A stretch of DNA of 64,000 nt, from the NCBI GenBank assembly GCA_013298595.1, contig JAAFIG010000016.1, positions 10,338 through 74,337 on the forward strand. The letters run 5' to 3'. The notes beneath the pieces are model-generated. The model was not told the DNA's origin. It made no database searches and saw only the letters and a list, made by a program, of their open reading frames with translations. Position 1 is the first letter of the stretch, and every line of letters starts with the position of its first letter. Positions 25,520-49,701 of the stretch are shown here, piece after piece. Source of the stretch: Deinococcales bacterium. GTDB lineage: Bacteria > Deinococcota > Deinococci > Deinococcales > JAAFIG01. The position numbers and the translations under genes were made by a program.

Positions 25520-25549
25520 CGTAGGGGCGAGGCATGCCTCGCCCCTACG
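25520..25549. repeat. perfect 30-bp palindrome, founder copy of an intergenic REP-like family
   Basis: CGTAGGGGCGAGGCATGCCTCGCCCCTACG is its own reverse complement. It lies between iolG2 and iolD, and related copies are listed below. Confidence 0.85.
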
Positions 25550-25619
25550 GTTGCGTCCCACACGAAATTTTTTGTACGTTTGTAGTATGTCTCGAGTAAC
25601 ACGTTTTAGGAGGTCATCC

Positions 25620-27497: not shown

Positions 27498-27503
27498 ACC
27501 AGT

Positions 27504-27668: not shown

Positions 27669-27685
27669 AAAGAATTTGAGGTGTT

Positions 27686-28621: not shown

Positions 28622-28636
28622 AACTCGAGGTGCAAG

Positions 28637-29638: not shown

Positions 29639-29671
29639 AAACAGATGAAGGTTGAAGGTCAAAAGTAAAAC

Positions 29672-29697
29672 CGTAGCGAGGCGTGCATCGCTCTCGC
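29672..29697. repeat. degenerate REP-family copy
   Basis: CGTAGCGAGGCGTGCATCGCTCTCG between iolC and iolB. It shares the CGTAG..CGAGGC..GCAT core and retains a short AGCGAG/CTCGCT stem. Confidence 0.4.
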
Positions 29698-29732
29698 TCA
29701 GAAACGAAAAGCGAATACCCCTAGGAGTCGAT

Positions 29733-33525: not shown

Positions 33526-33571
33526 CTCGAGGAAGGACGAAGGAAAAAAGAAGCAAGTTGATGTACAGTAC

Positions 33572-34501
33572 TCATAGTAAATCCCTCATACCTTTCTCGC
33601 CAACTCGGCGGGCATACAACCATAAGACCAACAAGGTTAAACCCATGACTAAAAAGCTAATGGCTGCACCAAAAGGGTAATCTCGAGAGGCACCAAATTG
33701 TTGAGCGATACTATTGCCAATTAAAGCAACTTTGGCACCACCTAGTAAATCAGGAATCACAAACATACCAAGCGCAGGGATAGCCGTTAAAATAATACCA
33801 GCTGTTAAACCAGGTAAAGTTTGTGGTACCAGCACACGAATAAAAGCTTGGGTTTTAGTAGCATATAAATCCTGAGCTGCCTCGAGTTGCGACCAATCAA
33901 TCCGTTCGACAGCACTATACAGTGGCAGCACAATGAATGGTAAGAAAACATTGACCATACCAACATAAACAGCAAAATCTGAAGGATACAAACCCTCATT
34001 TGGTTGCACAATACCCATACTGGCAGCCAACTGTGTAATCGGACTCGAGGGATTAAACATAATCATCCAAGCATAAGTGCGAATCACCAAGTTAACCCAA
34101 CTTGGCACAATCACAAAAATCATTAACCGATCACGCACTCGAGGTTCGTGACCAGCAATAAAAAAAGCCAATGGATAAGCAATAATCACACATAACAACG
34201 TGGTCACCAACGAAACCAAGATGGTACGCCCAACAATAAAAAGATAGGCTGCATCGTACCCAAGCACATCCCAACCAGCGAAACGCACATAATTATCAGC
34301 TGTGAACGGCGCAGCAGCATTGCCTAGTTCGTCTCGAGATAAGAAACTATAACCAAACAAAATCAGCATTGGTAAAACCAAAAATAAAGCAATCCAAACA
34401 ATCCCAGGTCCTGCCGTCACAGCAGCTCGAGACAACAATTGTATTGGTGTTAGTAACTCGCCACCTGCTGCCTCGAGTTTCGGTTTTTTAATTTTGGTCA
34501 T
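33572..34501 (-). CDS. potB: ABC transporter permease (PotB-like)
   Basis: Multi-TM protein with the EAA loop LEAAQDLYATK. Its start (34501) shares one base with the potA stop codon. Confidence 0.85.
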   Translation of the reverse strand: MTKIKKPKLEAAGGELLTPIQLLSRAAVTAGPGIVWIALFLVLPMLILFGYSFLSRDELGNAAAPFTADNYVRFAGWDVLGYDAAYLFIVGRTILVSLVTTLLCVIIAYPLAFFIAGHEPRVRDRLMIFVIVPSWVNLVIRTYAWMIMFNPSSPITQLAASMGIVQPNEGLYPSDFAVYVGMVNVFLPFIVLPLYSAVERIDWSQLEAAQDLYATKTQAFIRVLVPQTLPGLTAGIILTAIPALGMFVIPDLLGGAKVALIGNSIAQQFGASRDYPFGAAISFLVMGLTLLVLWLYARRVGEKGMRDLL

Positions 34502-35637
34502 CAGTGCACCTCCCCAATCTGATCTAAACGCGTACTACCTGCTAAAACAACAATCAAATTGGCTGGTAAATGCGCGAATAATTCGTCTTCAATAGCAAAA
34601 TCAGAATCTTGCACTCCACCATTCATGGTGTTTACCTCGAGTTCAAGTTGACTATTGGTACGAACTCGGTACGCACCCGTTGCACCTTGGTAAATATCGT
34701 CTGTCACAGAAACAGCTACTGTGTTCTGCTGCGATAACTGGGTTCTGGACAACTGAATTTTCTCTGGGCGAATGGACAACAAAACATCTTGACCAATCGC
34801 TGGTAAAAAATCATTAACCATTAACTCGCCAAGTTGCGTTTTGACTCGAGCCTCACCACACACTGTTCCTTCAAGCAAATTACTCGAGCCTAGGAATTTT
34901 GCCACAAAAGCATTGGCTGGGCGTTCATACATTTCTTGTACACCACCAAGTTGCTCGATGACACCTTTATTCATCACTGCCATGCGATCAGACATAGTGA
35001 GTGCCTCCTCTTGATCGTGAGTCACAAAGATAAAGGTTAAACCCAGCCGAGCTTGTAAACGCATTAACTCGACTTGCAAATTGACCCGCAACTTTCTGTC
35101 TAATGCCGAAAGTGGTTCATCTAATAACAACACTTGTGGCTCATTAACTATTGCCCTTGCCAACGCCACCCGCTGCCGCTGCCCACCCGATAATTGGGCT
35201 GGACGACGCTCAGCAAACGCCGAAATTTCTACCATCTCGAGCGCATTTTGCACTTTTGTTTTCACTTCTGCACTCGGCACTTTCCGCATCCGCAAACCAA
35301 ATGCCACATTATCCGCCACTGTCATATGCGGAAACAAGGCATAATTCTGAAAAACTGTATTGACACTGCGCTGATTTGGCGGCAACGGTGCAACATCCTG
35401 CCCACGCAGCAACACCGCACCCGAATCGGCAAATTCAAAACCTGCCAAAATCCGTAGCAAAGTAGTTTTACCGCACCCCGATGGACCCAGCAAACTAAAA
35501 AACTCACCACGCCGAATCTCGAGATTAATACCTTTTAGAACCTCAACATCACCAAAAGCCTTACGAATATCTTTGAAATGCACATCAACGCTTTCCTCGA
35601 GAACCCGTTTGCGCCGCTGACCAATGTTTAAGTCCAT
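34501..35637 (-). CDS. potA: spermidine/putrescine ABC transporter ATP-binding protein
   Basis: Walker A GPSGCGKTT, signature LSGGQRQR, Walker B LLLDEP, and a C-terminal TOBE-like domain. Confidence 0.9.
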   Translation of the reverse strand: MDLNIGQRRKRVLEESVDVHFKDIRKAFGDVEVLKGINLEIRRGEFFSLLGPSGCGKTTLLRILAGFEFADSGAVLLRGQDVAPLPPNQRSVNTVFQNYALFPHMTVADNVAFGLRMRKVPSAEVKTKVQNALEMVEISAFAERRPAQLSGGQRQRVALARAIVNEPQVLLLDEPLSALDRKLRVNLQVELMRLQARLGLTFIFVTHDQEEALTMSDRMAVMNKGVIEQLGGVQEMYERPANAFVAKFLGSSNLLEGTVCGEARVKTQLGELMVNDFLPAIGQDVLLSIRPEKIQLSRTQLSQQNTVAVSVTDDIYQGATGAYRVRTNSQLELEVNTMNGGVQDSDFAIEDELFAHLPANLIVVLAGSTRLDQIGEVH

Positions 35638-35817: not shown

Positions 35818-36330
35818 ATGAGATGGACTGATTTTGGTATTCAAAATCAGTTATTCGACTTGTCACATCTTGACCAGTTTGATCATGTGTATTTGCTTTC
35901 TGACGGCAGTTCCCATTGTGTCACTATTCGCTTTTCACATCATTGTTTCACTGATCATCCAAGTCCAACGGATGACCCTGATTCATCGTTTGTGATTGGT
36001 AAAGACCGCCGAACCTTTGATGTCCAGCGCTGGCAACTTTCCCAACGTTTACCCCAGATTATTAAAACCCTCGAGACACGCTATATCTCACACACTGACC
36101 ACCAAAGTTTTTTCACGGTTGAATTGGTCAATGAGCGGGGGCAGCCACAAGACTATGAGGTGTATTTTGAAGTTACCAAGGATACCAAAACCAAGCGTTT
36201 GTACCTGACTGTCAAAAGTGCTTATTCTCGAGACCCTAACCGAAACACACAGCGTCCCAAGTCTCGCAAAATTCGTTTGCTTGTAATTCTGCGAAACGCA
36301 CAGCAAAACAAACCGATTCGCAGGCAATAG
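35818..36330 (+). CDS. hypothetical protein
   Basis: 170-codon ORF with a basic C-terminus, followed directly by a strong terminator. No family recognised. Confidence 0.5.
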   Translation: MRWTDFGIQNQLFDLSHLDQFDHVYLLSDGSSHCVTIRFSHHCFTDHPSPTDDPDSSFVIGKDRRTFDVQRWQLSQRLPQIIKTLETRYISHTDHQSFFTVELVNERGQPQDYEVYFEVTKDTKTKRLYLTVKSAYSRDPNRNTQRPKSRKIRLLVILRNAQQNKPIRRQ

Positions 36331-36358
36331 AAAAGCCCGCCGAAACGGGCTTTTACCT
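36331..36358. terminator. rho-independent terminator (usable on both strands)
   Basis: AAAAGCCCG-CCGAAA-CGGGCTTTT, then TACC. An A-run and a T-run flank the GC stem. Confidence 0.7.
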
Positions 36359-36692
36359 TCCCTTGTGTCTTGGGATATGACCAGACCAGCTGGAAACCTT
36401 TGCAGGCGCACACTAGAACATTCGCAGAACGAACCAGGGGTTACATCCTAGCTTCGCCATATTATCATAAATAATAGTTGACAAAATTAGATAATACTGG
36501 GTCACTAAAAGTTGTACACGTATGTGAGTGAAAGTAAGCGTTTTGCGTTAGGAAGCATCAAAGTGGTCATACTTCCCTGTTGCTAACTTTTGCTTTTAGC
36601 AAACTGTTTTTCGATATCTAAAATTTTGCTCTGAATCCAATGTATGTTTTGCACTTCAAAAACCGTCAACACGCTCTATATTGTTTTCACTC

Positions 36693-37481
36693 ATGTGTGT
36701 TCGTTTAGCGATAATTACCGATTTACACCACGGGCGCGACACTGGAAAAGTGCGTGGTCCTTTGGCATTGCCTTTACTCAAAGACATTCTTTCCGAGATT
36801 CATCAAGCCGAACCTGATGCGGTACTCGAGTTGGGTGATCGGCTAACCGATGAAAATCCCGAGTTAGATCGGATTCGGTTGCTCGAGTTAGCTTCTGAAT
36901 TTAAGCGTTTGCCGTATCCGCGTCATCACATTAGTGGTAATCACGATATGTTGCCTAAAGCCGAGCAGGAAGCGATTCTTGGGGCGAATCTGGGTAATCA
37001 TAGTGTGGAATTAGATGGTTGGTTGCTGATTTTCCTCGAGTCTTATGATGGCACAACCAGTGGATTGGTAACACCTGCTACTGCTTTTTGGCTCAAGGAG
37101 ACATTGGCAAAAACCGCTTTGCCTTGTGTGGTTTTTTCGCATCAACCTTTGCATGGGCAGTGGTTAGAAGGTAATCAGTATTTTGAAACCGAGTACCGAG
37201 AACATGCTTCTGTCAAAGGTGCGGATGTTATTCGAGGCATTCTCGAGCAAAGTGCTAAGGTGCGTTTATGCGTTTCGGGGCATTGTCATTGGTTTGATGC
37301 TCGTCAGGTTAATGGTATTGATTACCTGACACTCTTAGGACCAACCGAATCGCATTGGACAAATGGTGAAGCCAGTGGTGCTTGGACATTACTCGAGTTA
37401 AGTGATGTGATTACAGTACAGCAATTTGGGGGCGCTCCAAAGCACATCAGTTTAGCTTCTCGAGTTAAACTCATGGCATGA
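36693..37481 (+). CDS. metallophosphoesterase (calcineurin-like)
   Basis: Motifs ITDLHHG, GDRLTD, GNHD, SHQP and GHCH. Start is ATG 36693 or TTG 36681. Confidence 0.8.
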   Translation: MCVRLAIITDLHHGRDTGKVRGPLALPLLKDILSEIHQAEPDAVLELGDRLTDENPELDRIRLLELASEFKRLPYPRHHISGNHDMLPKAEQEAILGANLGNHSVELDGWLLIFLESYDGTTSGLVTPATAFWLKETLAKTALPCVVFSHQPLHGQWLEGNQYFETEYREHASVKGADVIRGILEQSAKVRLCVSGHCHWFDARQVNGIDYLTLLGPTESHWTNGEASGAWTLLELSDVITVQQFGGAPKHISLASRVKLMA

Positions 37482-38254
37482 CCGATTTTCTTACCATTGC
37501 CATGAAAGCTGCGAGAGCCGCTGGTGCTATTCAACTCGAGTACATTGGTCAGGATTTAAGTATTGAAAGTAAAAGCGTGGATTCGGATTTGGTAACCATT
37601 GTGGATGCTAAATGCGAAGCCATTATTCGCCAGATCATTCTCAAAGCTTTTCCTGACCATGCCATTCTTGGTGAAGAAGGTGGCACAGTTGGTAGTAATG
37701 CGTATCAATGGATTGTTGATCCTTTGGATGGCACTGTGAATTACGCGCATGGTTTCCCGTTTTACTGTGTTTCAATTGCTCTCGAGCATCATGGGCAGCG
37801 TTTGGTTGGTGTGGTTTTTGATCCAAATCGCAACGAATTATTTCATGCCACAAAAGATGGTGGCGCTTTTTTAAACAACAAAGCAATTCGTGTTTCACAG
37901 CAAGCTACTTTGACAGGTCGGGCGATGCTGGCAACAGGTTTTCCTTATGATACCCAAACAGCTTTAATTGCACTCGAGGTTTTTAAGCGTTTTCTGGCAC
38001 TTGGTTTACCGATTCGTCGTCCTGGAGCAGCGGCACTGGATTTATGTTATGTGGCTTGTGGGCGAATAGATGGTTTTTTCGAGTATAAACTCAATGCTTG
38101 GGATTGTGCAGCTGGTATTTTAATCATCGAACAAGCGGGTGGTAAAGTCAGTAATTTTATTGGTGAAACATATGCCTATGCAGATAAGAAAATCGTTGCC
38201 AGCAACAATTTGGTGCATCAGGCGATGCTTGAGCGTATTAACACACCTGTATAA
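37478..38254 (+). CDS. inositol monophosphatase family protein
   Basis: IMPase signatures EE..G, WIVDPLDGTVNYAHG and WDCAAG. ATGA overlap with the upstream phosphoesterase gene. Confidence 0.9.
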   Translation: MTDFLTIAMKAARAAGAIQLEYIGQDLSIESKSVDSDLVTIVDAKCEAIIRQIILKAFPDHAILGEEGGTVGSNAYQWIVDPLDGTVNYAHGFPFYCVSIALEHHGQRLVGVVFDPNRNELFHATKDGGAFLNNKAIRVSQQATLTGRAMLATGFPYDTQTALIALEVFKRFLALGLPIRRPGAAALDLCYVACGRIDGFFEYKLNAWDCAAGILIIEQAGGKVSNFIGETYAYADKKIVASNNLVHQAMLERINTPV

Positions 38255-39388
38255 TTACTTATGAGCATCTTGTAACGAAGTCCAAATATGTTCGGCAATG
38301 CGGTACACCGCTTCTGGTTCGGCAAGTTTTTGCACTGCTGCCTGCATTGCCTCAAGTTTACCTGGAGTACTGAGTACTTGCTCGAGGGTAGCTGCAACTT
38401 TTTGTGCCCCTTCGGCATATAAACCAGCGCCTTGTTGAACAACATATTCGGCGTTCGGCGATTCTTGGTATTTGATTGCACCATTGAGAATCATCGGGGT
38501 ACCAAGTGCTGCTGCTTCAACAATGGTGGCAGGTCCAGCTTTAGAAATCAGTACATCCGCTGCCCGTAAAAACAGATCAAAATCGGTAGTGAAACCATAA
38601 ATGATCGTTTTTTTACGCCATTGTATGGTCTCGAGTGATTCTTTCAAGGCAACGTTTTTACCCGCCAGTACCACCAGCTGGGCATTGGCTACACTGGCAT
38701 CAATGGCTTTGGCTGTCTCGAGCATTGGTCCCATGCCGTCGCCACCGCCTGCAAGAATAACAATTTTGGCATCCTGATCCCAACCAAGTTTGGCTCGAGC
38801 TGCGGCTTGGGTTAAGTGCATTTTAGAAAATCTTGGGTGCATCACAGGACCCGTGAGAATCAGTTTACTAGCATCTATACCCAGTTCTAATCCTCGAGTT
38901 AATGCTGGTGGTACTGGAACCAAGGTTTTATCAGCTCGGTTGTCGTACCATAACGAACTGGGCTTGGCATAATCGGTAATAACAGTTAAGAAAGGAATTT
39001 GCCGTTTTTGTTTACGTAGAGCATCCACACTTGGGCGCACAAATGCGCCATGCACACAAACAACAATATCAGCTGGGTGACGCTGGTACAAATACTTAAT
39101 TTTAGGAAAAACCACTTTTGAATAAACTCGATGCCCTAAACCTTTACGAAAAACTCGGTCGGTCAACCAGAATTGGGCTTCGTAACTGGCAGGATGGTTG
39201 TTGTACCAGATGCCATAGGTTTTCGGTAAGGTATTGAGTGGAAAAGGGGCAAAATCACGAAACATATCAACCAATTCGTACTGTAATTGATTAGGGTATT
39301 TTTCATCCAAGGCTGCCGTTATTGCCCGACAAGCTGCCCGATGTCCCCCACCTGTATCGGACATCAAGAACAAAACCCGTTTCGCCAT
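38255..39388 (-). CDS. GT28 glycosyltransferase, MGDG-synthase-like (copy a)
   Basis: MAKRVLFLMSDTGGGHRAA N-terminal MGDG_synth motif plus a GT-B C-terminal domain (ISKAGPATIVEAAALGTPMIL). Confidence 0.85.
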   Translation of the reverse strand: MAKRVLFLMSDTGGGHRAACRAITAALDEKYPNQLQYELVDMFRDFAPFPLNTLPKTYGIWYNNHPASYEAQFWLTDRVFRKGLGHRVYSKVVFPKIKYLYQRHPADIVVCVHGAFVRPSVDALRKQKRQIPFLTVITDYAKPSSLWYDNRADKTLVPVPPALTRGLELGIDASKLILTGPVMHPRFSKMHLTQAAARAKLGWDQDAKIVILAGGGDGMGPMLETAKAIDASVANAQLVVLAGKNVALKESLETIQWRKKTIIYGFTTDFDLFLRAADVLISKAGPATIVEAAALGTPMILNGAIKYQESPNAEYVVQQGAGLYAEGAQKVAATLEQVLSTPGKLEAMQAAVQKLAEPEAVYRIAEHIWTSLQDAHK

Positions 39389-39436
39389 AGACAGCAGTTT
39401 AACCTAAAATGTATTCGGACTCGAGGGCAAAAACAG

Positions 39437-40465
39437 CTATTTTTCTGCTGGTTTTGTCTGATTTTTTTCTGCCGATGCACGTAGTAACGCCATACCGCCA
39501 ATTAATGGACCAATGAAAATATAAAAATAAAACGATAAGAAACGCCACATCAACACCAAAGGAGTACGGGCTTCACTTGAGATACCAACAGCAGCAAAAA
39601 CCTTCCCAAGGGCAAATTCAAAGTACCCACCACCACCAGGGGTTGGAGCGGCAAAACTCGAGAAAACCACTAAACTTTGGGCTGCCATGACTGCTACATG
39701 ATCAAAATTTGGTAAACCAAGCGCCCACGCCACCACATTAAAAGCAGCAAAGTGAAAAATCCAACCAAATCCATTCATCACATGTAACAAAATTTGGGTT
39801 GGAATAGTCATGCGCCGCAAACTCGAGACTTCTTCTTCCGTACGTTGCACAAAAGCAAAAGCACCACGGCGAAAACGTTGTAAAAAGCGAAGACTAAAAA
39901 TAGACCAAACTATTTTTGATAAAAAAGCTGACCCATAAGCAATACCCCAAGCTACTGCTAACATCAAACCAGCACCACCAAAACCCAGTAATGCCACCAA
40001 CCAGTAACCAATACTGATAATGTGTTTTGCCTCGAGAATAAACAGTGCTACAGGCAACGACCAAGCATAAAACACCAAATCTAAAACCACGCTATACACA
40101 GCAATAGCAGTGGCTTTATTGGCATCCATAAAACGGCTGAGATACCAACCCAACCCAAAGCTTGCACCCGTGGCAGCAGGTGTAACAGCGGCACTGAATA
40201 AACCCAGCAAACTGGCTTGAGTGCCGCGCCAAACCGATATTTTCTTACCTTCTGGAAATTGGGCTGCTAAAATTTTCACCCGAAAACCCATGCACAACCA
40301 CCATGCCATAATCACGGGAATCAGGCTGGCAGCACCAATGGGTTGAATCTGAATAGTGGCAGTAAATTCAGATAAATTGAATTTCTCACCTGTCAGTAGC
40401 AGCAATGCCACAGCTGCAATAGAAAAAGCAACAGAAATAAGAATCGTACGAATGGGACTACTCAC
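39437..40465 (-). CDS. UPF0104 / LPG-synthase-TM (MprF flippase-domain-like) membrane protein (copy a)
   Basis: Polytopic membrane protein with the characteristic TPGGGGYFE motif near the C-terminus. Sandwiched between two GT28 genes. Confidence 0.75.
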   Translation of the reverse strand: MSSPIRTILISVAFSIAAVALLLLTGEKFNLSEFTATIQIQPIGAASLIPVIMAWWLCMGFRVKILAAQFPEGKKISVWRGTQASLLGLFSAAVTPAATGASFGLGWYLSRFMDANKATAIAVYSVVLDLVFYAWSLPVALFILEAKHIISIGYWLVALLGFGGAGLMLAVAWGIAYGSAFLSKIVWSIFSLRFLQRFRRGAFAFVQRTEEEVSSLRRMTIPTQILLHVMNGFGWIFHFAAFNVVAWALGLPNFDHVAVMAAQSLVVFSSFAAPTPGGGGYFEFALGKVFAAVGISSEARTPLVLMWRFLSFYFYIFIGPLIGGMALLRASAEKNQTKPAEK

Positions 40466-40498
40466 ACATACCAGTCTGCCACATCTCGAGCTTAGAAG

Positions 40499-41623
40499 TC
40501 ACGGGGTTAAACTCCTCATGATTTCATCAGCAATTCGGTATACAGCATCAGGCACTGCTAGTTTTTTGACTGCAACCTCTAAAGCCTCGAGTTTACCTGG
40601 GGTACTAAGCACTTGCTGGAGCGCATCTGCCACATTCTCTGCACCTTCGGCATACAAACCAGCGCCTTGTTGAACAACATATTCGGCGTTCGGCGATTCT
40701 TGGTATTTGATTGCACCGTTAAGAATCATCGGGGTACCAAGGGCTGCTGCTTCAGTAATCGTGGCAGGTCCAGCTTTAGAAATCAGTACATCCGCTGCCC
40801 GTAAAAACAAATCAAAATCTGGAGTGAAACCATACACCAACGTTTTTTTACGCCATTGCACCGCCTCGAGCGAAGCTTGCAGAGCCACATTCTTACCCGC
40901 TAAAACAACCAATTGCGCGTTAGGAACACCAGCATCAATAGCGATAGCTGTCTCGAGAATCGGACCCATGCCATCGCCACCACCAACCAAGACAGCAATT
41001 TTTGCCTCCTGATCCCAACCAAGTTGTGCTCGGGCTTGGTGTTTTGTCATCGTCATCTTAGAAAATCTGGGGTGCATGACTGGACCTGTCAGAATCAGTT
41101 TAGCTGGGTCTATGCCTAACTCAAGTCCGCGTTGATAGGCTGGTTCAACTGGCACTAAGGTTTTATCAGCTTTGCTTGCATACCAAAGAGACGTTGGTAA
41201 AGCGTAATCTGTGACCACCGTAATAAATGGTATTTGTTGTTCTTGTTGTCGTAAAACTTCGACACTTGGACGAACAAATACACTGTGTACACAGACTACT
41301 ATATCTGCTTGGTGTTGCTGATAAAGATGTTTAATTTTTTGAAATAAATACTTTGAGTAAAAACGATCTCCAATTCCTGAACGAAATACTCGATCAGTAA
41401 TCCAAAATTGGGCAGCGTAACTCCACGGATAACGATTAACCCAAGTACCATAGGTATGTGGCAAAGTACTAAAAGGGTATGGGGTGTAATGCTGCCACAT
41501 ATCTACCAGTTCGGCTTCAAAAACCCCTGGATAGCACTCATCCAGTGCTGCCATTATGGCAGTACAAGCCGCCCGATGCCCGCCACCTGTATCGGACATC
41601 AAAAACAGCAAGCGCTTCGCCAT
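40499..41623 (-). CDS. GT28 glycosyltransferase, MGDG-synthase-like (copy b)
   Basis: MAKRLLFLMSDTGGGHRAA. Alignable end to end with copy a, roughly 70% amino-acid identity by eye. Confidence 0.85.
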   Translation of the reverse strand: MAKRLLFLMSDTGGGHRAACTAIMAALDECYPGVFEAELVDMWQHYTPYPFSTLPHTYGTWVNRYPWSYAAQFWITDRVFRSGIGDRFYSKYLFQKIKHLYQQHQADIVVCVHSVFVRPSVEVLRQQEQQIPFITVVTDYALPTSLWYASKADKTLVPVEPAYQRGLELGIDPAKLILTGPVMHPRFSKMTMTKHQARAQLGWDQEAKIAVLVGGGDGMGPILETAIAIDAGVPNAQLVVLAGKNVALQASLEAVQWRKKTLVYGFTPDFDLFLRAADVLISKAGPATITEAAALGTPMILNGAIKYQESPNAEYVVQQGAGLYAEGAENVADALQQVLSTPGKLEALEVAVKKLAVPDAVYRIADEIMRSLTP

Positions 41624-41706
41624 AATTTAATTCTACCCTTAAACACGTCTTGCAAGTGCATTGTATTTTGCTGTGCGAATTGATTGTCCCATGTATACTG
41701 GTCATC

Positions 41707-42861
41707 GTGGCTAAACCGCGTATTCTCTTGGCAATGATTACCGTAGGCAATGGGCATAAAGCTCCTGCCGACGCAATAAAATCAGGTCTCGAGCGGTTAT
41801 ATCCGAATCAATTTGAAATAGATGTGCTCGATTTTACGGCGGCTGTCGGCGATTTAGCTTTTGATAAACGCCACAAAGATTCGTGGAATTGGATGCTCAA
41901 ATACCCAAGTTTTGCTTATTGGGGTCAAGTGATCATGGATTCAATTGTGCCTGTTAAATTTACACGCTTTGTACAAAAAAAAATGTTACGCCAACATGCA
42001 GCACACGCCACCACTTTTATCAAAGAAAAACAATACGCACTTGTGGTAGCTACCCATTTTTTTACCATCCAAGCCATCGCTTTAGCCAAAGACGAATTTG
42101 ACTTAAAAATACCATTGGTTGGTTTTGATGCAGACCCTTTTGATGCCCATGCAATGTGGGTTGAACCAAGTGCCGATGAGATCATTGTTGCCAGTCAGCA
42201 AGCCAAAGAAAAATTGATTCAAAAAACCATGCCAGCCAACAAAATCAGTGTTTATAATTACCCTTTTGCCACACAATTTACCGAAAACCTGCCAAGCCAA
42301 GCAGCAGCTCGAGCCGAATTAAACCTCGAAAATACCATGCTTACTATTTTACAATCCGCTGGCGGCGAAGGTATTGGTGGGCAACTCGAGCAATCAGTTG
42401 AATCTGTTTTTCAAGCCAATTTACCAGTGCAATACATCGTCATTTGTGGGCGAAATACCGAGTTACTCGAGCGTTTAGAGGGTATGGCTGCACGCTTTCC
42501 CAATTCAAAAGTTCGTTTTGTAGTCAAAGGATTTATCGAAAATATGCCAACTTGGATCATTGCAAGCGATTTAATTCTTGGTAAAGCTGGAGCTGCGAGT
42601 ACCATGGAAGCTCTGATCCTTGGAAAACCCATTTTCCATGTTAGTTACGTTGCTTATAACGATCGTGCCAATATGGAATGGTGTGTCAAGCAAGGTGTTA
42701 GCGAATTTATCCCAAAACCAGAGCAATTACTCGAAGTTTTACAAAGATTTCTCAAGCATCCAGAGCAATTAACAATGTTACACGCTCGAGTACGTGAATT
42801 AAATATTCAATCTGGAACCCTTGATATTGCTAAGCATTTGGTCGAGAGGTATTTGCAATAA
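41707..42861 (+). CDS. GT28 glycosyltransferase, MGDG-synthase-like (divergent copy c)
   Basis: VAKPRILLAMITVGNGHKAP aligns with the MAKR.LFLMSDTGGGHRAA N-terminus of copies a and b, supporting GTG 41707 as the start (track ORF starts at 41650). GT-B C-terminal domain (LGKAGAASTMEALILGKP). Confidence 0.75.
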   Translation: MAKPRILLAMITVGNGHKAPADAIKSGLERLYPNQFEIDVLDFTAAVGDLAFDKRHKDSWNWMLKYPSFAYWGQVIMDSIVPVKFTRFVQKKMLRQHAAHATTFIKEKQYALVVATHFFTIQAIALAKDEFDLKIPLVGFDADPFDAHAMWVEPSADEIIVASQQAKEKLIQKTMPANKISVYNYPFATQFTENLPSQAAARAELNLENTMLTILQSAGGEGIGGQLEQSVESVFQANLPVQYIVICGRNTELLERLEGMAARFPNSKVRFVVKGFIENMPTWIIASDLILGKAGAASTMEALILGKPIFHVSYVAYNDRANMEWCVKQGVSEFIPKPEQLLEVLQRFLKHPEQLTMLHARVRELNIQSGTLDIAKHLVERYLQ

Positions 42862-43967
42862 TGGTGTGGTTTCTGACATTACCTTGGTTGCTGCTGAGTG
42901 TTCATACATTAATAAATGCCGTACTCTTCAAGCGCTTAGCTTCATTTCCGCGAGCAAAAAAACAGCCTTTGGTTACGATTTTAGTACCCGCTCGTAATGA
43001 AGAAATTTCTTTACCTGTGCTGTTACCAACATTATTAGCGCAAAATTACCCACAACTCGAGATTATTATCTTAAATGACCACTCAACTGATGGTACACAA
43101 ACCATTCTCGAGTCCATTTCTGATAGGCGTTTGCGGGTGATACAGGGTGGCGAATTACAAGCAGGATGGCGCGGCAAAGCCAATGCTTGCGATCAACTTG
43201 CCAAAGTTGCCACTGGCGAGATTCTCATTTTTACTGATGCTGATACGATATGGCATCCTGATGCCACCCAACACATTGTAGCTGCTTTTGAGCACAGCCA
43301 AGCCGAGGTACTTTCGGCTTGGTCAGAACAAATCCTGACCAGTCGTTTCTCGAGATGGTTACAGCCGTTTATCGCTTGGTCAACAGTTGCCCTGATGCCA
43401 ATGCCACTAGCTGCTGATTCAAGATTCCCTGATATCGTTTCGGCGAATGGGCAATTATTTGCGTATACCAAAGCAGCGTACAATAAATTTGGTGGTTTTG
43501 CCCGAGTAAAATCTTCGGTACTCGAGGATATAGATTGTGCTAAATTACTCAAAAAAGAAGGCTATAACTACCGTTTCTTCAATGCCTTAGGGTCAATCAA
43601 ATGCAAAATGTACAACAACGATGCCGAAGTTATAGATGGGTTTTCTCGAGGTTCATTTGCAGTACTCAACTACCAACCAGTATCTGTTGTTGGAACAGCG
43701 ATTTTATTTTTATGGTTATTTATTGCACCAATCATTTGGTTTTTACTGGCATTGCTTAGTGGTGCCGATATTGGGCTACCAGCCCTCACCGTAGCCTTGA
43801 TGATTATTAGCCGAGCAAGAACCGATCTCGAGTTTGGTTTCCCAATTCAATTATCGTTGACAACACCAATATCAGCAATCTGCTGGACGTATATCGCTTT
43901 TTTGTCATGGTATCGCTATGCCACTGGGAGAATCAGTTGGAAGGGACGAACTTACGATATGCGTTAA
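42861..43967 (+). CDS. membrane-bound GT2 glycosyltransferase, CrtQ/HpnI-like (copy a)
   Basis: GT-A motifs LVPARNEE, LNDHSTDGT and FTDADT, then C-terminal TM helices, ending WKGRTYDMR. Start overlaps the GT28c stop. Confidence 0.8.
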   Translation: MVWFLTLPWLLLSVHTLINAVLFKRLASFPRAKKQPLVTILVPARNEEISLPVLLPTLLAQNYPQLEIIILNDHSTDGTQTILESISDRRLRVIQGGELQAGWRGKANACDQLAKVATGEILIFTDADTIWHPDATQHIVAAFEHSQAEVLSAWSEQILTSRFSRWLQPFIAWSTVALMPMPLAADSRFPDIVSANGQLFAYTKAAYNKFGGFARVKSSVLEDIDCAKLLKKEGYNYRFFNALGSIKCKMYNNDAEVIDGFSRGSFAVLNYQPVSVVGTAILFLWLFIAPIIWFLLALLSGADIGLPALTVALMIISRARTDLEFGFPIQLSLTTPISAICWTYIAFLSWYRYATGRISWKGRTYDMR

Positions 43968-44989
43968 GCTTTTTTTTCGGCTGCACGCAATAATGCTGCC
44001 CCACCGATAAATGGACCAATGATGATATACAAAAAATATGATAAAAAACGCCACATCAATGCCAATGGCACTCGAGCTTCGGCTGGAATATCAAGTAACC
44101 CAAAGAGTTTTGGTAATGCTACTTCAAAATACCCTGTACCACCTGGTGTTGGCACTAACATCGAAACAGATACGACTAAGCTTTGAAAAGCCAGAATCGC
44201 ACCATGATCAAAGTTTGGAATGCCTAATGCCCAGCCCAGCACATTAAAAGCACCAAAATGGAAGAGGAAATTGAGGAAATTAACAAAGTGAATCAGCAAT
44301 TGCCGTTGCCACGGTAAATCGCGTAAGGCGGCAATAACATTACCTGTGCGTTGTACAAAAGCATAGGCTCGAGCGCGGCGAGCCTTTAAAAAGCCTAAAC
44401 TAAAGATATTCCACACCAGCTTTGCTAGTAAATCCACCCGAAACGACAACATCCATGCTGCTGTTAATAAGATGCCACTCAGCACATAAACTAGGTAATC
44501 CAGTGCTGGGATACCAATCAAAGTGCCAACATCTATACCTAACGCAAACCGCAACACCAAAAATGAAGCAGGTAAAGACCAAGCATAAAACACTAAATCG
44601 AGCACTAAGCTATACACTGCAATAGCTGTTGCTGATTTTGCTTCTAAATAGCGACTCAAGTACCAGCCAAGCCCAAAACTCATACCCGTTGCTGATGGTG
44701 TAACAGCGGCTGAGAACAGCGCAAGTAGCGATGCCATAATGCCACGACCAACTGTTATCTGATCACCATTTGGCATGGTAGTTGCCAAGAGTCGAATCCG
44801 AATACCCAGCAAAATCCACCAAGCAACCAAAGATGCTAGTAAAATTGGTATTTTCCACCAATCAATTTTTGTTAATTGTGCAAAAGCAACAAAATCAATT
44901 TTTTCGCCTGTGAGAAGTAAAACACCAAGCGCCACTGCTAAAAAAAATATGGAAATACCAACTATCCGAATCGCACTGTTCACACGCAC
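43964..44989 (-). CDS. UPF0104 / LPG-synthase-TM flippase-like membrane protein (copy b)
   Basis: Paralog of 39437..40465 (TPGGTGYFE motif). Its stop codon overlaps the stop of the convergent GT2a gene (TTAA at 43964-43967). Confidence 0.75.
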   Translation of the reverse strand: MRVNSAIRIVGISIFFLAVALGVLLLTGEKIDFVAFAQLTKIDWWKIPILLASLVAWWILLGIRIRLLATTMPNGDQITVGRGIMASLLALFSAAVTPSATGMSFGLGWYLSRYLEAKSATAIAVYSLVLDLVFYAWSLPASFLVLRFALGIDVGTLIGIPALDYLVYVLSGILLTAAWMLSFRVDLLAKLVWNIFSLGFLKARRARAYAFVQRTGNVIAALRDLPWQRQLLIHFVNFLNFLFHFGAFNVLGWALGIPNFDHGAILAFQSLVVSVSMLVPTPGGTGYFEVALPKLFGLLDIPAEARVPLALMWRFLSYFLYIIIGPFIGGAALLRAAEKKA

Positions 44990-45108
44990 ACCTCTGCAAG
45001 GGAAATCTGCCTACGCCAAGGCATGATACCCTGTTTTATGCCAATCAATCTCGAGATGGTCGTCAGCAAAGCCACATGGTTTTCACGTACAATTCAACTT
45101 ACTTCACA

Positions 45109-46239
45109 ATGATACTTTTCTTAACGCTGACTTTACCGTGGCTACTTTTATGCTTGCACACGTGGTTAAACGCATTGTTGTTTCAGCGTTTAGCCCATTT
45201 CAAAAAACCCGCTCCACATCAACCAAAAGTTTCATTACTCGTGCCAGCCCGTAACGAAGAAAAAACTTTGCCACTGCTGATGCCTTCGCTGTTAGCACAA
45301 AACTATCCAAATCTCGAAATTTTAGTCTTAAACGATAATTCCGAAGATGCCACCCAAAGTATTCTCGAGGGTTTTAGCGACCCCCGTTTGAAATTAATGA
45401 TGGGTGGACCACTACCTGAAGGTTGGCGCGGTAAACCAAACGCTTGTGAACAACTAGCACATGCCTCGAGTGGCGAGATTTTGTTATTCACCGATGCTGA
45501 TACCGTCTGGCACAAGGATGCCACGCAACTGATGGTCAATGCCTTACATCATCATCGGGCAGACGCAGTTTCAACCTGGCCTGAACAAATTCTGGTCGGT
45601 CGAATTTCGCATTTGATCCAACCCTTTTTGGCTTGGTCTATTCTGGCGTTAATGCCAATGGTGATGATTAACTCGCGGCGCTTTCCGAATATGAACCCAG
45701 CTTCAGGGCAATTATTTGCTTACAAGCGCGAATCGTATTTTAAATTTGGTGGATTTGCTCGAGTCAAAACCTCGATTCTCGAGGATATGGAATGCGCTAA
45801 ATTACTGAAAAAAGATGGTTTTCGTTATAAATTCTTAAATGGTCTTGGTGTGGTGCAATGCAAAATGTACAACAACGACCAAGAAGTGTTAGATGGTTTC
45901 TCGAGGAATTTTTTTGCTGTAGTGAATTACCAGATTTTGCCATTTATTGCAGCCGCACTCGGGTTTTTCTGGGTTTTTGTTTTTCCGATTATTTGGTTTG
46001 TACTGGCTTTATTTGGTGTTCCTATTTTCGGCGAAGCCAATTGGCAATTAGCGCTGCTAACCATTGTTCTGATGCTTTTATCTACGGCTCGTTCGTATGC
46101 CGAATTTGGTAATCCAATAGCTCTGGCTTTGTTGGTACCACTTTCGGCTTTAACATGGATTCGCATTGCCGCTTTATCGTGGTACCGATTTGTCAAAGGG
46201 CAAGTGACGTGGAAAGGCAGAACCTATAATTTACGTTAA
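45109..46239 (+). CDS. membrane-bound GT2 glycosyltransferase, CrtQ/HpnI-like (copy b)
   Basis: LVPARNEE, LNDNSEDAT and FTDADT motifs, ending WKGRTYNLR. ATG 45109 was chosen by alignment with the copy a N-terminus (track ORF starts at 45076). Confidence 0.8.
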   Translation: MILFLTLTLPWLLLCLHTWLNALLFQRLAHFKKPAPHQPKVSLLVPARNEEKTLPLLMPSLLAQNYPNLEILVLNDNSEDATQSILEGFSDPRLKLMMGGPLPEGWRGKPNACEQLAHASSGEILLFTDADTVWHKDATQLMVNALHHHRADAVSTWPEQILVGRISHLIQPFLAWSILALMPMVMINSRRFPNMNPASGQLFAYKRESYFKFGGFARVKTSILEDMECAKLLKKDGFRYKFLNGLGVVQCKMYNNDQEVLDGFSRNFFAVVNYQILPFIAAALGFFWVFVFPIIWFVLALFGVPIFGEANWQLALLTIVLMLLSTARSYAEFGNPIALALLVPLSALTWIRIAALSWYRFVKGQVTWKGRTYNLR

Positions 46240-46269
46240 GGGTGAAGGCAAGTTAGCGTTTTGTCAATT

Positions 46270-46290
46270 GAGCGAGGCATGTCTCTACGG
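46270..46290. repeat. degenerate REP-family half copy
   Basis: GAGCGAGGCATGTCTCTACGG lies between the convergent GT2b and uvrC genes. It matches the CGAGGCATGCCTC..CTACG half of the consensus, with substitutions and a deletion. Confidence 0.4.
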
Positions 46291-46314
46291 ATAACGGGAT
46301 AAATGCACCCACTT

Positions 46315-48150
46315 CTATGAATTTAGCGCAAAATGAGCCTTAATCACTTTGGCAAAATTGCCACCAATCCCGGGCACACCCGCAATTTGCTCGAGACTTG
46401 CAGCTCGAATTTCCTCAAGGCTGGTGAAATGCTCGAGTAAAGCTTCTTTGCGTTTGTCGCCAATACCGGGTACATCGTCAAACACCGATTTCATCATCGC
46501 TTCTGCGCGAAGCTTTCGATGGTAGGTAATGGCATAATGATGTACTTCGTCACGCACAGCAATCATCATCCGTAAAGCTGGGTGTGTCTCGAGTAAGCGC
46601 ACTTCGCGGTTTTTACCAATTTCAGAACCTGTGGTCAGCCACCATTGTGCGCCATACATACTTGGCAGGATCAGGGTTTCTTCGCGTTTGGCGAGTCCCA
46701 CCACAGGCACTTGTACCCCAGCTTCGCGTAGCGCATCCAATGCCGCATTGACTTGTCCCCGTCCACCATCAATCATCAGTAAATCTGGCATGGGTAACTT
46801 CTCGGATAAACTGCCTGTGAAACGCCGCAGCACGGTTTGGCGCATACTGGCATAATCATCAGGGTGATCTAAACCTTTAACCTTAAACCGCCGATACTCG
46901 CCTTTTCGTGCCCGTCCACCTTCAAACACCACCATCCCCGAGACAATATGGGTGCCAAATAAATTGCTGTTATCGTAACCTTCGATGCGCCACGGACGCT
47001 CTGGAAGCGCTAGAACTTCTTTTAATGCTTCGAGTCCAGGGTTTTCACCTCGTTTCTCGAGTAAAGCAAGTTCGGATTCCAAACCTGTTAAAGCATTACG
47101 GGTTGCCATCTCGAGCAAATCCACTTTTTCACCACGTTGCGGGTGGCGTAATTCGACTTTGCGGTTAGCCCGAGTGGACATAAATTCTTGCCAGACTGCA
47201 GCATCTTCAAATTCAACTGGCACCAATACTAACGGCGGAATTTGCATGGCAACACCGTAGTAATCCTGCATAAAGGCTTTAAGGATTTCTTCGCTACTGC
47301 TCTCCTCTGCCCCAGTAAGAAAGCGTTTATCGCGCCCAATCACCCGCCCAGCCCGCATTTGAAAGTGTTGCACCATGGCAAACTCGCCGGCTTGGGCAAC
47401 CCCAAGAAAATCCATATCCTCGAGACCCGTATTTAAAGCCACTTGTTGATCGGAACCAAAAAGTTTTTCGACTGCTTGCACCCGATCCCTTATACCTGCG
47501 GCTAATTCAAATTCTCGGTTTTGCGCTGCTTCACGCATGGCATCGCGCAATTTCTCGAGCACATCATTGGCTTTACCCTCGAGTACCCCTGTCACATCTG
47601 CCACAGCTTCGGCGTAATCTTCAGGGGTAGCATAACCGACACAAGGCGCGAGACAGCGCTTCATATGAAAATTCAGGCATGGGCGTTTTTTGGTTTGAAA
47701 CGGAATTCCCGAGTTTTTGCGTAATGGAAACGTCGTATCTATCAAGTTTTTAGCCCGCCAAACCGCTCTCGAGTCTGGGTAAGGACCATAGTATTTTCCA
47801 CCGTCCTTTATCACTTTACGAGTCACCACCAGCATCGGGTATAACTCTTTGGTCAGTTTCAAAAACGGATAATGCTTATCATCTTTAAGCAGCACATTGT
47901 AACGCGGACGATGCTGCTTAATCAGATTCGCCTCGAGCACCAGAGCTTCCACTTCGTTGGTTGTCACGATCGTCTCGAGCGAACCCGCATCTCGAGTAAT
48001 CCGACTTGACTTACCAGCACTCTTAAAATGCTGCCCTATACGGGTTTTAATGTTATTGGCTTTACCAACATAAATGACCCTACCAGCAGGAGTACGAAAA
48101 ATGTACACACCAGACTGCGTTGGTAAAACTGGAACTTCTTCAAAGGTCAC
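46315..48150 (-). CDS. uvrC: excinuclease ABC subunit C
   Basis: 611 aa. N-terminal GIY-YIG (GVYIFR...VIYVGKA), a UVR domain, an RNase H-like endonuclease domain and a C-terminal (HhH)2 (VPGIG...GVPGIG). Confidence 0.95.
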
Positions 48151-48277
48151 AAGGGTATTGTACTATTATGCTCAGGGCAAAACAAATCAAGCTCAGCCTC
48201 GAGCATGCAGTAGTAGCGTTCGTCCCTCGAGATTACACAAATTTACAAGCTACCAATATCTGAACTATATTCTTTCT

Positions 48278-49024
48278 ATGAATCTCCAATTGACACCAGA
48301 ACGTAAACAGATCATCCAAAATCTGAATGCAACAGGTATTCCTTACCTGATTCGAGAAGAATACCGTGATTTGATTTCATCTTGGGGCGCAAACAACGAA
48401 AATTTACTTTTTATTTGGGTGCAATATCCACAACAACCAGAAGACATCAGCGCCATTAGCAAAGCTGTTCTAGGAAAAGTAGAAAATAATTTTCAAGGAT
48501 ATAGCAGTTACCTAGGCATATTTGGTTTAAGTTTTTGTCCACCACAGTCTCGAGAAGATTTTTTTAGTCAGTATCAACAACGAGTGATTGTTAACCACCA
48601 AGGTTTAGCCTTAAATTTTGCCAAATCCGAATCTGTGCTTGGTGATGTGTCAACAAAAACAGAAATACAGCTTCAAATAGATGATTTTCTTTCTGATATT
48701 GAAAGCTTAAACTTATTTGCTGTTCAGTACTTAGTTGTTGATGAATATCCGCAACAGTTTACTTCTACAACTCTTGGAACAAATACCATGATTCTTTGGT
48801 TGGGTATTTCTGAGGAAAACGAGAAACGCATTCGTAAAGCCAATGCGTTCATCACGGGCAATCCTCCAAAACGCGGGGAAATGCTCAAGCCACGAAAGTT
48901 TCAGCAAGGTGGAATTATCTGGCAGAACTATTATGACAATCTTGATTTTGAGGAATGCTATCAGCAACGTGACATTCTTAATATCCAAGGTATCACCGTG
49001 AATTTCTTGAAAAGACCGACTTGA
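48278..49024 (+). CDS. hypothetical protein with internal duplication
   Basis: ATG 48278 (the track ORF start at 48074 overlaps uvrC). The two halves end in related blocks: REDFFSQYQQRVIVNHQGLALNFAKS and DFEECYQQRDILNIQGITVNFLKRP. AT-richer than its neighbours. No family recognised. Confidence 0.5.
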   Translation: MNLQLTPERKQIIQNLNATGIPYLIREEYRDLISSWGANNENLLFIWVQYPQQPEDISAISKAVLGKVENNFQGYSSYLGIFGLSFCPPQSREDFFSQYQQRVIVNHQGLALNFAKSESVLGDVSTKTEIQLQIDDFLSDIESLNLFAVQYLVVDEYPQQFTSTTLGTNTMILWLGISEENEKRIRKANAFITGNPPKRGEMLKPRKFQQGGIIWQNYYDNLDFEECYQQRDILNIQGITVNFLKRPT

Positions 49025-49041: not shown

Positions 49042-49701
49042 CTAAGACACGAAATGAGAAATTTTGAACTTCTCGAGAACACGTACCTGATGCAAAAAAA
49101 CTTGTGGAACGCTCACCTCGAGTCCAGCAAAATCTGTGGCAACTCGAGAAAATAATGCAGCAGCAATATCTGGTTTTCCTGCCCACCATCCACTGACTGC
49201 GCCTTGGGTTTGGCTCGAGAACAGTTGTTGTTGGTGCCAGCAACCGCTGAATGGCATGGCGAGTATCATACTGATGGGTTTGTCTTGCTCAAAAGCAACA
49301 TAGGCTATTAAATCTTTGTGGGCTTGCATGGCTTTGGTTATCTCGAGCGTGACCAGTTCTTGCCACTCGAGGGCATTATGCTGTTTGCACCATACAACTG
49401 CCAGTTGTTTAGCTTGAGTCCATGACACTTGTTCAATATAAATATCTGGGTTTTGTGTACCGTTCCACTCGAGAATCAGACCTTGGTACTCAGGCTTGCC
49501 AAGTGATTCTGGATTAACAATAAATACTGGGCGTTGCAATCTTTCTAACTCGAGCTTGAGAACATCTAACGACTCGAGTTTTTTGAGATACCCAGCATTG
49601 ACCTCGAGAATTGGTAAATTTGCATTCTGCAAAATCAAAAAATCAGTTGACTCGAGTTTCTGCTTGGCAAATAATGCCCAGTAATCCTCGAGCCAGCTCA
49701 T
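49042..49701 (-). CDS. hypothetical protein (last gene of the GNAT-acyP operon)
   Basis: 219-codon ORF starting 2 nt after the acyP stop. No family recognised. It contains 12 CTCGAG sites and many Leu-Glu dipeptides. Confidence 0.55.
   Translation of the reverse strand: MSWLEDYWALFAKQKLESTDFLILQNANLPILEVNAGYLKKLESLDVLKLELERLQRPVFIVNPESLGKPEYQGLILEWNGTQNPDIYIEQVSWTQAKQLAVVWCKQHNALEWQELVTLEITKAMQAHKDLIAYVAFEQDKPISMILAMPFSGCWHQQQLFSSQTQGAVSGWWAGKPDIAAALFSRVATDFAGLEVSVPQVFLHQVRVLEKFKISHFVS

Follow-up and report, generated by a model that had tools for sequence, protein, structure and literature searches.

Seven genes of three protein types

The stretch analyzed here, henceforth the window, comprises 64,000 nucleotides of contig JAAFIG010000016.1 from an assembly named Deinococcales bacterium (GCA_013298595.1). 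At 38255-46239 it contains seven adjacent, intact genes that encode just three protein types, i.e., GT28 glycosyltransferases (GT28a, GT28b and GT28c), flippase-like UPF0104 proteins (FLPa and FLPb) and GT2 membrane glycosyltransferases (GT2a and GT2b). A first-pass annotation, made from the letters alone, had described this arrangement. The list of open reading frames (ORFs) and Pfam searches bear it out, with strands and coordinates of all seven ORFs in agreement, and the assignments to GT28, GT2 and UPF0104 hold in both Pfam and NCBIfam.

On the minus strand, GT28b (40499..41623), FLPa (39437..40465) and GT28a (38255..39388) are co-directional with intergenic gaps of 33 and 48 nt, GT28a being the last gene of this unit. 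GT28c (41650..42861) and GT2a (42861..43967) lie on the plus strand, the former divergently oriented to GT28b. The GT28c stop and the GT2a start overlap in a TAATG at 42859-42863, which indicates translational coupling of the two genes. GT2a and FLPb (43964..44989, minus strand) are convergent, and their 3' ends overlap by 4 nt. FLPb and GT2b (45076..46239, plus strand) are divergent across 86 nt, or roughly 120 nt if the GT2b start is corrected to 45109. This is probably the true start, because the database product P0003 has 376 amino acids and the start aligns with that of GT2a. For GT28c, the true start is probably the GTG at 41707; it is supported by the N-termini of orthologs and drops a spurious N-terminal hydrophobic segment. 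A scan for consensus promoters and terminators across 36300-46500 gave counts not above those in shuffled sequence, and we hence claim no transcription units from it.

In its LepA (3784-5580), the window shares 74-77% identity with many Deinococcus species and with metagenome-assembled genomes (MAGs) named Deinococcota or Deinococcales, and 82-93% with metagenomic proteins. The G+C content of the window is 45.5%, which we take to be much below that of cultured Deinococcus; related contigs that bear the cluster range from 50 to 63%. The nearest named homologs of GT2a (56%) and FLPa (59%) both come from one 'Deinococcales bacterium' MAG. From these identities and the base composition, the host is an uncultured low-GC lineage of the Deinococcota.

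All three GT28 proteins passed the Pfam cut-offs for both the N-terminal MGDG_synth domain, named for monogalactosyldiacylglycerol (MGDG) synthase, and the C-terminal Glyco_tran_28_C domain. GT28a reached 64.9 and 51.8 bits, respectively, whereas GT28c passed narrowly (29.5 bits at a cut-off of 25 and 32.3 at a cut-off of 22). GT28b aligned over its full length with the Arabidopsis MGDG synthase MGD1 (4wyi; residues 3-368 versus 6-380, E 1.3e-56), including an identical N-terminal LMSDTGGGHRA motif. The MGDG-synthase motif noted in the first-pass annotation is thus real, as SDTGGGHRA in both GT28a and GT28b aligns identically with MGD1. Similarity to a UgtP-type processive glucosyltransferase (9wde) was weaker (E 3.6e-26 for GT28b), and GT28a and GT28b scored 195 bits against MGD1 versus 95 bits against UgtP. 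MurG similarity of the GT28 proteins was weak to marginal (E 1e-7 to 1e-4). The nearest NCBIfam models describe diglucosyl-diacylglycerol synthases, with scores far below the equivalog cut-offs: For the UgtP/YpfP equivalogs NF010135 and NF010134, the best scores were 95-137 bits versus cut-offs of 500 and 557. MGD1 was also the best match of GT28c (E 3.9e-23), where the motif is changed to VGNGHKA.

GT28a and GT28b are 75.5% identical to each other (pairwise BLASTP, as for the other pairs below; E = 0), GT28c just 24% to either (E 1e-34). GT28c is probably a second-sugar transferase. Sugar specificity, e.g., a transfer from UDP-Gal to diacylglycerol, is not readable from the sequences of these enzymes because close homologs in Roseiflexus differ in both sugar and acceptor (PMC3276260).

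The two UPF0104 proteins scored 76.7 (FLPa) and 66.2 bits (FLPb) for PF03706, LPG_synthase_TM, with a cut-off of 33.4, and both exceeded the cut-off of 43.2 for TIGR00374, the 'flippase-like domain' (55.7 and 46.4 bits). They are 51.5% identical (E 2e-112). An AlphaFold model of FLPa (mean predicted local distance difference test score, pLDDT, 86.4) showed a polytopic, all-helical fold. In a fold search the only real Protein Data Bank (PDB) matches were Pseudomonas aeruginosa MprF structures (9j8s, 9goe; probability 1.00, TM-score 0.57-0.60), with other folds at 0.33 or less. This fold is that of the MprF flippase domain, in line with the earlier designation of UPF0104 as the lipid-flippase-like module of MprF, at a sequence identity of 14-16%. 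A PDB sequence search with FLPb gave no match. Among 1.84 billion cluster representatives, a HMMER scan with FLPa found 191 proteins at E <=1e-3 and eight at <=1e-30, and a word-indexed search returned 19 clusters. Given so few matches, this flippase subfamily is rare and divergent.

GT2a and GT2b are 57.5% identical (E 1e-160; about 59% in our identity table). Both matched Glycos_transf_2 (87.2 and 81.6 bits) and, at a cut-off of 21.7, Glyco_transf_21 (PF13506; 29.7 and 36.3 bits), which places them in the GT21/CruC-like family of lipid-glycosylating enzymes. Both end in WKGRTY. Across 13 homologs W360-K361-G362-R363 is invariant; the alignment further showed invariant D73, D126-A-D128 and D223, and 90% or more of the sequences have E222. 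The GT2a model (pLDDT 93.5) features an N-terminal transmembrane helix, a GT-A domain and four C-terminal helices, so that the C-terminal motif and domain order read from the letters by the first annotator stand. Its top structural matches were the membrane GT2s PcManGT, BcsA and hyaluronan synthase; we know of no solved structure for the CruC/HpnI/GT21 family.

An N-terminal transmembrane helix, a GT-A domain with DXD, C-terminal helices, the Glyco_transf_21 match and a C-terminal W-K/R-G-R are shared with CruC, CruG, CrtQ and HpnI/HpnB. The proposed resemblance to CrtQ and HpnI is therefore correct at the family level. It does not extend further: HpnB, CruG and HpnI were the best NCBIfam models of the GT2s, but all scores stayed far below the equivalog cut-offs, with 144.6 and 130.4 bits versus 379 for HpnB, 46 versus 310 for HpnI and 90.1 and 106.9 versus 600 for CruG (NF045692).

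Gene neighborhoods and the history of the duplication

Two gene arrangements, which we term modules A and B, are each found on their own in related contigs from metagenomes. Module A consists of a GT28, a GT28c-GT2 (or GT4) pair and a flippase, together with an ABC2 exporter. A form with a GT2 is found in contig L004, with a GT28 (78% identical to GT28b), a GT28c-type protein (58%), a GT2 (54%), an FLPa-type flippase (60%), an ABC2 permease and an ATPase. L093, from a Deinococcales MAG, holds the GT2, flippase, ABC2 and ABC genes. L096 and L097 carry ABC, ABC2, UDP-galactopyranose mutase, flippase (62-63%), GT4, GT28c-type (63%) and GT28 (76-77%) genes, and here the GT4 occupies the position held by the GT2 elsewhere in the cassette. 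In module B (L007-9, L099-101), a NAD-dependent epimerase and a flippase converge on a GT2 (46%), accompanied by a conserved 317-amino-acid protein. In L094, a different GT28 is located directly upstream of a GT2; a terminal partial gene on this contig is not recognizable as a flippase C-terminus.

GT2 and UPF0104 genes are thus adjacent in five independent related contexts. They are convergent neighbors in the window, L004, L007-9 and L093, and converge also in L099-101, with small ORFs between them. The trio of GT28, GT28c and UPF0104 recurs in L004 and in L096/L097, the third transferase being a GT2 in the former and a GT4 in the latter. Conservation of the gene neighborhood, which the first-pass annotation had named as a check on its proposal, was hence found. 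Among more distant GT2 homologs, the association is absent. In a metagenome scan with the GT2 alignment, none of 80 loci with homologs of 30-42% identity had a UPF0104 or GT28 neighbor, and a genome collection scanned with GT2a gave one weak match (26%) in a Chloroflexia MAG. The linkage of GT2, UPF0104 and GT28 genes is real and recurrent, and it is confined to one clade, the closest relatives, since it is absent from all 80 distant loci.

The more distant GT2 relatives lie in other surroundings. Those at 38-44% identity either are part of carotenoid clusters of the type CruF-acyltransferase-GT2-CrtI/CrtD (L002, L011/12) or are found among several polysaccharide-type glycosyltransferases (L010, L095), and about 20 of the 80 loci from the metagenome scan have CrtI-like or acyltransferase-like neighbors. 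GT2a and GT2b could thus be true carotenoid glycosyltransferases of the CruC type, as is also suggested by HpnB and CruG as best NCBIfam matches and by the family name, chlorobactene glucosyltransferase, given by JGI to the whole GT2 family. The UPF0104 proteins would then redistribute glycosylated isoprenoids, with pigments as in Deinococcus-Thermus and Chloroflexi, and the GT28 enzymes would belong to an independent, adjacent galactolipid pathway. We consider this unlikely on several grounds. Neither the window nor any flippase-linked locus contains a CruF, CrtI or CruD-like gene; tblastn with the L002 CruF, acyltransferase and CrtI as queries found none in the 64-kb window nor in L004, L007-9, L093, L094 and L096-99, and window ORFs of at least 150 amino acids gave no squalene-hopene cyclase or hpn match in Pfam and NCBIfam. 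The carotenoid or hopanoid type proposed for the GT2s in the first-pass annotation accordingly finds no counterpart in the gene content of flippase-linked loci. The flippase-linked GT2s form a clade of their own, next to but apart from the CruC-like clade of the carotenoid clusters, and its members lie beside UPF0104 genes, a GT28 gene (L094) or both, never beside carotenoid or hopanoid genes. GT28c and GT2a are translationally coupled, the GT28c-GT2 pairing recurs in L004 and in L094 a GT2 has another GT28 as its partner, all of which is at odds with two independent pathways, as is the GT4 in place of the GT2 in L096/L097. Scores far under the CruG, HpnB and HpnI cut-offs point in the same direction. 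Finally, P0017, the CruC-like GT2 from the carotenoid cluster of L011, shares just 38% identity with GT2a, and P0145 is a LepA that shares 87% with the one in the window. For each of the two, the longest contig on record is a JGI contig of 1,118,938 bp, and hence both probably are encoded on one contig; a related bacterium would then keep its carotenoid enzyme as a separate gene.

Two further candidate signals were set aside. An amine oxidase gene at 30578-31660 might be mistaken for a carotenoid desaturase, but only its N-terminal FAD-binding motif matches the HpnE/CrtD models and tblastn with the L002 CrtI did not find it. Compared with the carotenoid-cluster enzymes by region, GT2a is 24-33% identical in its membrane part versus 45-48% in the GT-A domain. 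We did not use this as a sign of an acceptor change, as lower identity is expected for any membrane region.

Next to the FLPa-type flippase of module A, an ABC2-type permease and ATPase pair is located at 9218-11210 in L004, 1912-3891 in L093 and 6536-8583 in L096. It is 75-87% identical across these three contigs and better conserved than the glycosyltransferases. In these relatives, the pair may export the glycolipid. A homolog of the permease was not found in the window, and the ATPase query recovered there only the sugar-transporter ATPase at 34501-35637 (26% identity). In L096, a UDP-galactopyranose mutase gene (GLF, 8830-9930) adjoins the flippase gene, with the GT4 at 10992-12137, which suggests a galactofuranose-containing variant of the glycolipid in this organism.

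The tight linkage of an exporter pair to module A could also mean that the cluster builds a glycolipid anchor or lipid-linked precursor for an envelope glycopolymer, be it lipoteichoic-acid-like, a lipoglycan or a polyprenyl-phosphate-linked sugar, with the flippase delivering the primer to the outside. In agreement with this, family GT28 includes MurG, to which the GT28 proteins have their weak matches, the closest NCBIfam names are those of the diglucosyl-diacylglycerol synthases that make the lipoteichoic acid anchor of Firmicutes, and the sister GT2 clade (L010, L095) is found among polysaccharide-type glycosyltransferases. However, neither the cluster nor the related loci examined contain a gene for a polymerase, a ligase, an LtaS-like protein, Wzx/Wzy or a polyprenyl-phosphate transferase, and the similarity to MurG is far weaker than that to MGD1 (E 1e-56). 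We thus rate a role in glycopolymer assembly as improbable.

Neighbor-joining trees and identity tables were used to reconstruct how the doubled gene set arose. GT28b is 76-78% identical to the GT28 of L004, L096 and L097. For GT28a, identity to the GT28 of L004 and L096, which is single-copy there, amounts to 71-72%. By these values GT28b is the ortholog of the single-copy GT28 of the relatives and GT28a an extra copy. GT28c, with 58-63% identity to the genes in the same position in L004, L096 and L097, is a separate conserved subfamily and not a third copy. FLPa falls among the module A flippases, sharing 59-63% identity with those of L004, L093 and L096. FLPb falls among those of module B, with 54-58% identity to the L007 flippases and to P0130 and P0131, all of which have an epimerase and a GT2 as partners. 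Identity of either protein to orthologs elsewhere (63% and 58%) therefore exceeds that between the two (52%). In contrast, GT2a and GT2b are sisters (59%), both nearest to module A GT2s (55-59%); GT2a is 54-59% identical to the flippase-adjacent GT2s of L004 and L093 and to P0002. The most plausible origin of the seven genes is that modules A and B fused, with a GT28 duplication and a GT2 duplication in addition. None of the relatives examined has the doubled gene set.

That the two GT28s, the two UPF0104 proteins and the two GT2s are paralog pairs, as first proposed, is far beyond chance at the identities given above. The further idea of two diverged versions of one pathway is true in part: The UPF0104 genes come from two old subclades, but both GT2s are of the module A type and GT28c is no third copy. 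GT28a and GT28b have a ratio of nonsynonymous to synonymous substitutions (dN/dS) of 0.15 at a dS of 1.2, and FLPa and FLPb one of 0.25 at a dS of 1.8; for GT2a and GT2b dS is saturated, and no ratio is given. The GT28a/b and FLPa/b pairs are old duplicates under purifying selection. This bears on whether the second set is functionally redundant, a product of duplication or rearrangement with copies lacking any specialization, or even an assembly artefact. Single copies of each gene indeed suffice in the relatives (L004, L096), and the genome assembly of the window carries no annotation. Yet the copies are full length and old (52-75% protein identity, dS of at least 1.2), the two testable pairs evolve under the constraint just described, and FLPa and FLPb each have their closest kin in other organisms. 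A nucleotide identity of 58-73% is moreover incompatible with an artefact of assembly, be it collapse or duplication. We therefore regard redundancy as very unlikely.

Proposed synthesis and transbilayer movement of glycolipids

We consider it probable, though by no means certain, that the locus serves the synthesis and transbilayer movement of at least one glycosyl-diacylglycerol membrane lipid in its Deinococcota host. GT28a and GT28b, as soluble, membrane-associated, inverting enzymes of the MGD1 kind, would transfer a first hexose from a UDP-sugar to diacylglycerol at the cytoplasmic face. Further sugars would be added by GT28c and, after it, by GT2a and GT2b within the membrane, giving a di- or tri-glycosyl lipid, or these enzymes would produce alternative head groups. 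The two UPF0104/PplT proteins would act as energy-independent scramblases through which the finished glycolipids reach the outer leaflet, and their substrate preference might result from proximity to the glycosyltransferases instead of a tight binding site. With two flippase types and duplicated transferases, sugar or acceptor specificity probably differs between the copies. In this scheme we infer the diacylglycerol acceptor, the lipid acceptor of the GT2s, the order of steps, the sugars used and the flipping activity.

Synthesis at the cytoplasmic face would be in agreement with the GT2a model, as its architecture is that of membrane-embedded GT2s with a cytoplasmic catalytic domain. We further argue that the GT2/GT4 position of the cassette adds a sugar to the growing glycolipid head group and not to a carotenoid, because a GT4 replaces the GT2 in place and because relatives carry enzymes for sugar nucleotides, namely UDP-galactopyranose mutase and the epimerase. 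Such a pattern is that of a lipid on which a variable glycan is assembled. A division of labor between GT28 paralogs has been described in Roseiflexus, where three of them act as MGDG synthase, monoglucosyldiacylglycerol (MGlcDG) synthase and second-sugar transferase on MGDG (RcMGD, RcMGlcD, RcDGlcD; PMC3276260). They are a direct precedent for shared work on diacylglycerol lipids. Like our locus, these MGD1-type systems of plants (4wyi) and Chloroflexi feature full-length homology with the GGGH motif and, in Roseiflexus, several paralogs per genome, presumably with different roles toward sugar or acceptor. Our locus differs by its non-photosynthetic Deinococcota host and by the very divergent GT28c (24%). 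Clustering of GT28 genes with flippase-like and GT2 genes is not described in PMC3276260 or in the HexSDF study discussed below (PMC10128005).

For the flippase part, the transport domain of MprF has been demonstrated to scramble lipids promiscuously and without energy input, and the authors propose that the associated enzyme sets the substrate preference (PMC11980842). A survey of PplT domains found frequent fusion to glycosyltransferase domains (10.1101/2022.03.11.483950). MprF (9j8s, 9goe; PMC11980842) and our locus share the transport-domain fold and a logic in which the head group is modified inside and then translocated. In MprF, however, an aminoacyl-phosphatidylglycerol synthase is fused to this domain, whereas the locus has separate glycosyltransferase genes and no such synthase domain.

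The closest known systems combine a lipid glycosyltransferase with a stand-alone UPF0104 protein, and with these experimental precedents the synthesize-then-flip pathway suggested by the first-pass annotation remains the best-supported explanation. HexSDF of Clostridioides difficile (PMC10128005) has a GT28 enzyme of the MGDG-synthase family (HexS) beside an MprF-like UPF0104 flippase (HexF), and the same logic was proposed for it, i.e., a sugar is placed onto a glycosyl-diradylglycerol inside and the product is then flipped. It differs in a polysaccharide deacetylase, an amino-glycolipid product, a co-directional three-gene operon and a two-component system. Our locus, in contrast, spreads its genes, three of the GT28, two of the membrane GT2 and two of the flippase type, over both strands, and belongs to the Deinococcota, not the Firmicutes. 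GpgSDF of Pseudomonas aeruginosa (PMC12713373) likewise pairs a cytoplasmic lipid glycosyltransferase with a predicted flippase of the UPF0104/YbhN type (COG0392), but GpgS, a GT4, uses phosphatidylglycerol as its substrate and the system depends on a deacetylase. The feature common to both systems, a lipid glycosyltransferase adjacent to a UPF0104 flippase, is present in our locus and kept in its relatives. Neither the seven genes nor their immediate neighbors nor the related loci yielded a deacetylase domain, and against the NCBIfam model GlcN_PG_flip, FLPa scored 31 bits versus an equivalog cut-off of 320, with no match for FLPb.

The general scheme is also familiar from Firmicutes, in which the GT28 diglucosyl-diacylglycerol synthase UgtP/YpfP makes a glycolipid inside that a dedicated membrane protein, LtaA, flips. 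LtaA, however, is a proton-coupled transporter of the major facilitator superfamily and not a UPF0104 protein.

Several points weigh against a glycosyl-diacylglycerol pathway of this kind. The acceptor of the GT2s could be an isoprenoid, as their nearest annotated relatives, at 38-44% identity, are the carotenoid-cluster enzymes and as JGI's name for the family implies. GT2 and flippase genes are convergent, and hence they are not co-transcribed. Contig L098 holds an epimerase and a flippase gene with no glycosyltransferase gene within 10 kb, and the ABC2/ABC pair of module A has no counterpart in the 64-kb window. For HexF and GpgF, flipping is itself only predicted, and loss of HexF did not abolish the product (PMC10128005, PMC12713373). 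The glycolipid role of the subfamilies found here is, in turn, a prediction from sequence.

We may speculate further that the cassette of GT28, GT28c, GT2 or GT4 and PplT, in relatives along with the ABC2 exporter, makes and exports the bulk glycolipid of an outer membrane free of lipopolysaccharide in an uncultured Deinococcota clade. A CruC descendant would have been repurposed for a glycerolipid, and the double set would yield two surface glycolipids. We find this extended proposal doubtful.

If the glycosyl-diacylglycerol pathway is confirmed, a narrow UPF0104 subfamily wired to glycolipid synthases would provide a tractable pair for studies on the substrate specificity of stand-alone PplT proteins; for very few flippases or scramblases of bacterial lipids has the substrate been established. 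It would also place homologs of plant-type MGD1 in a non-photosynthetic Deinococcota lineage, imply recruitment of a carotenoid-type GT2 to glycerolipid head-group synthesis and supply candidates for the genes behind the unusual, glycolipid-rich envelopes found in this phylum. To our knowledge, the biosynthetic genes of these envelopes are largely unassigned. What is new is a combination within a known principle, the lipid glycosyltransferase with its UPF0104 flippase, and no new category. Within it, the MGD1 homologs in Deinococcota, a CruC-related GT2 clade without carotenoid genes, a rare flippase in two versions and the ABC2 exporter in relatives are noteworthy.

Surrounding genes

Directly adjoining GT28a, a metallophosphoesterase gene (36681/36693-37481) and an inositol monophosphatase gene (37478-38254) overlap by 4 nt. 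They are real genes, and the first-pass annotation had tentatively linked them to the locus. This link was not borne out: None of about 100 related loci contains a homolog of either, and the pair converges on GT28a, so that they are most simply seen as unrelated neighbors. About 8 kb upstream, an inositol catabolism-like cluster (23448-30563) encodes two GFO/IDH/MocA dehydrogenases (IolG-like), a thiamine-pyrophosphate enzyme (IolD-like), a xylose-isomerase-like TIM barrel (IolE-like), a PfkB kinase (IolC-like) and KduI/IolB. For the inositol monophosphatase, this cluster offers a less unusual setting than the glycolipid genes do. An ABC sugar transporter with two permeases and an ATPase follows at 32614-35637.

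Elsewhere in the window, at 8671-13835, the gene for a UvrD-like helicase (899 amino acids) overlaps the start of an 833-amino-acid ORF that has no Pfam match and a faint AddB match (E 3e-4). By these matches the two may be a divergent helicase-nuclease pair of the AddAB/AdnAB kind. The composition of the 12-14 kb bin is unusual, with a GC of 0.51, a GC skew of -0.21 and an AT skew of +0.23. Two tandem paralogs of M29 (thermophilic metalloprotease) aminopeptidases are encoded at 20765-23309. An IrrE/ImmA-like M78 metallopeptidase of 271 amino acids (31802-32617), identified by a generic domain match only, might be related to the radiation-response regulator PprI/IrrE. Four ORFs of 164-316 amino acids had no Pfam match (48074-49024, 49042-49701, 2902-3738 and 16397-16891), and the first three of these had no NCBIfam match either; two of the four lie just beyond UvrC, downstream of the cluster.

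The related contigs hold further genes around the modules. The 317-amino-acid protein of module B (L007 4561-5514; L099 12697-13650) is 78% identical between the two contigs, has no Pfam match and is encoded divergently to the GT2; it was not found in the window. In L093, a bacteriorhodopsin-family gene (4362-4993) is located 0.5 kb past the ABC pair. Beside the epimerase-flippase pair of L007, a dCTP deaminase gene (8765-10483) is split by an intein, as seen from the domain order DCD, Intein_splicing, DCD, whereas its counterpart in L099 encodes 190 amino acids without an intein. Large regulator-like proteins with BTAD, AAA (NB-ARC) and TPR domains are encoded in the window (56306-59251) and also close to the related GT2 loci of L004 (13312-15687) and L002 (15457-18945).

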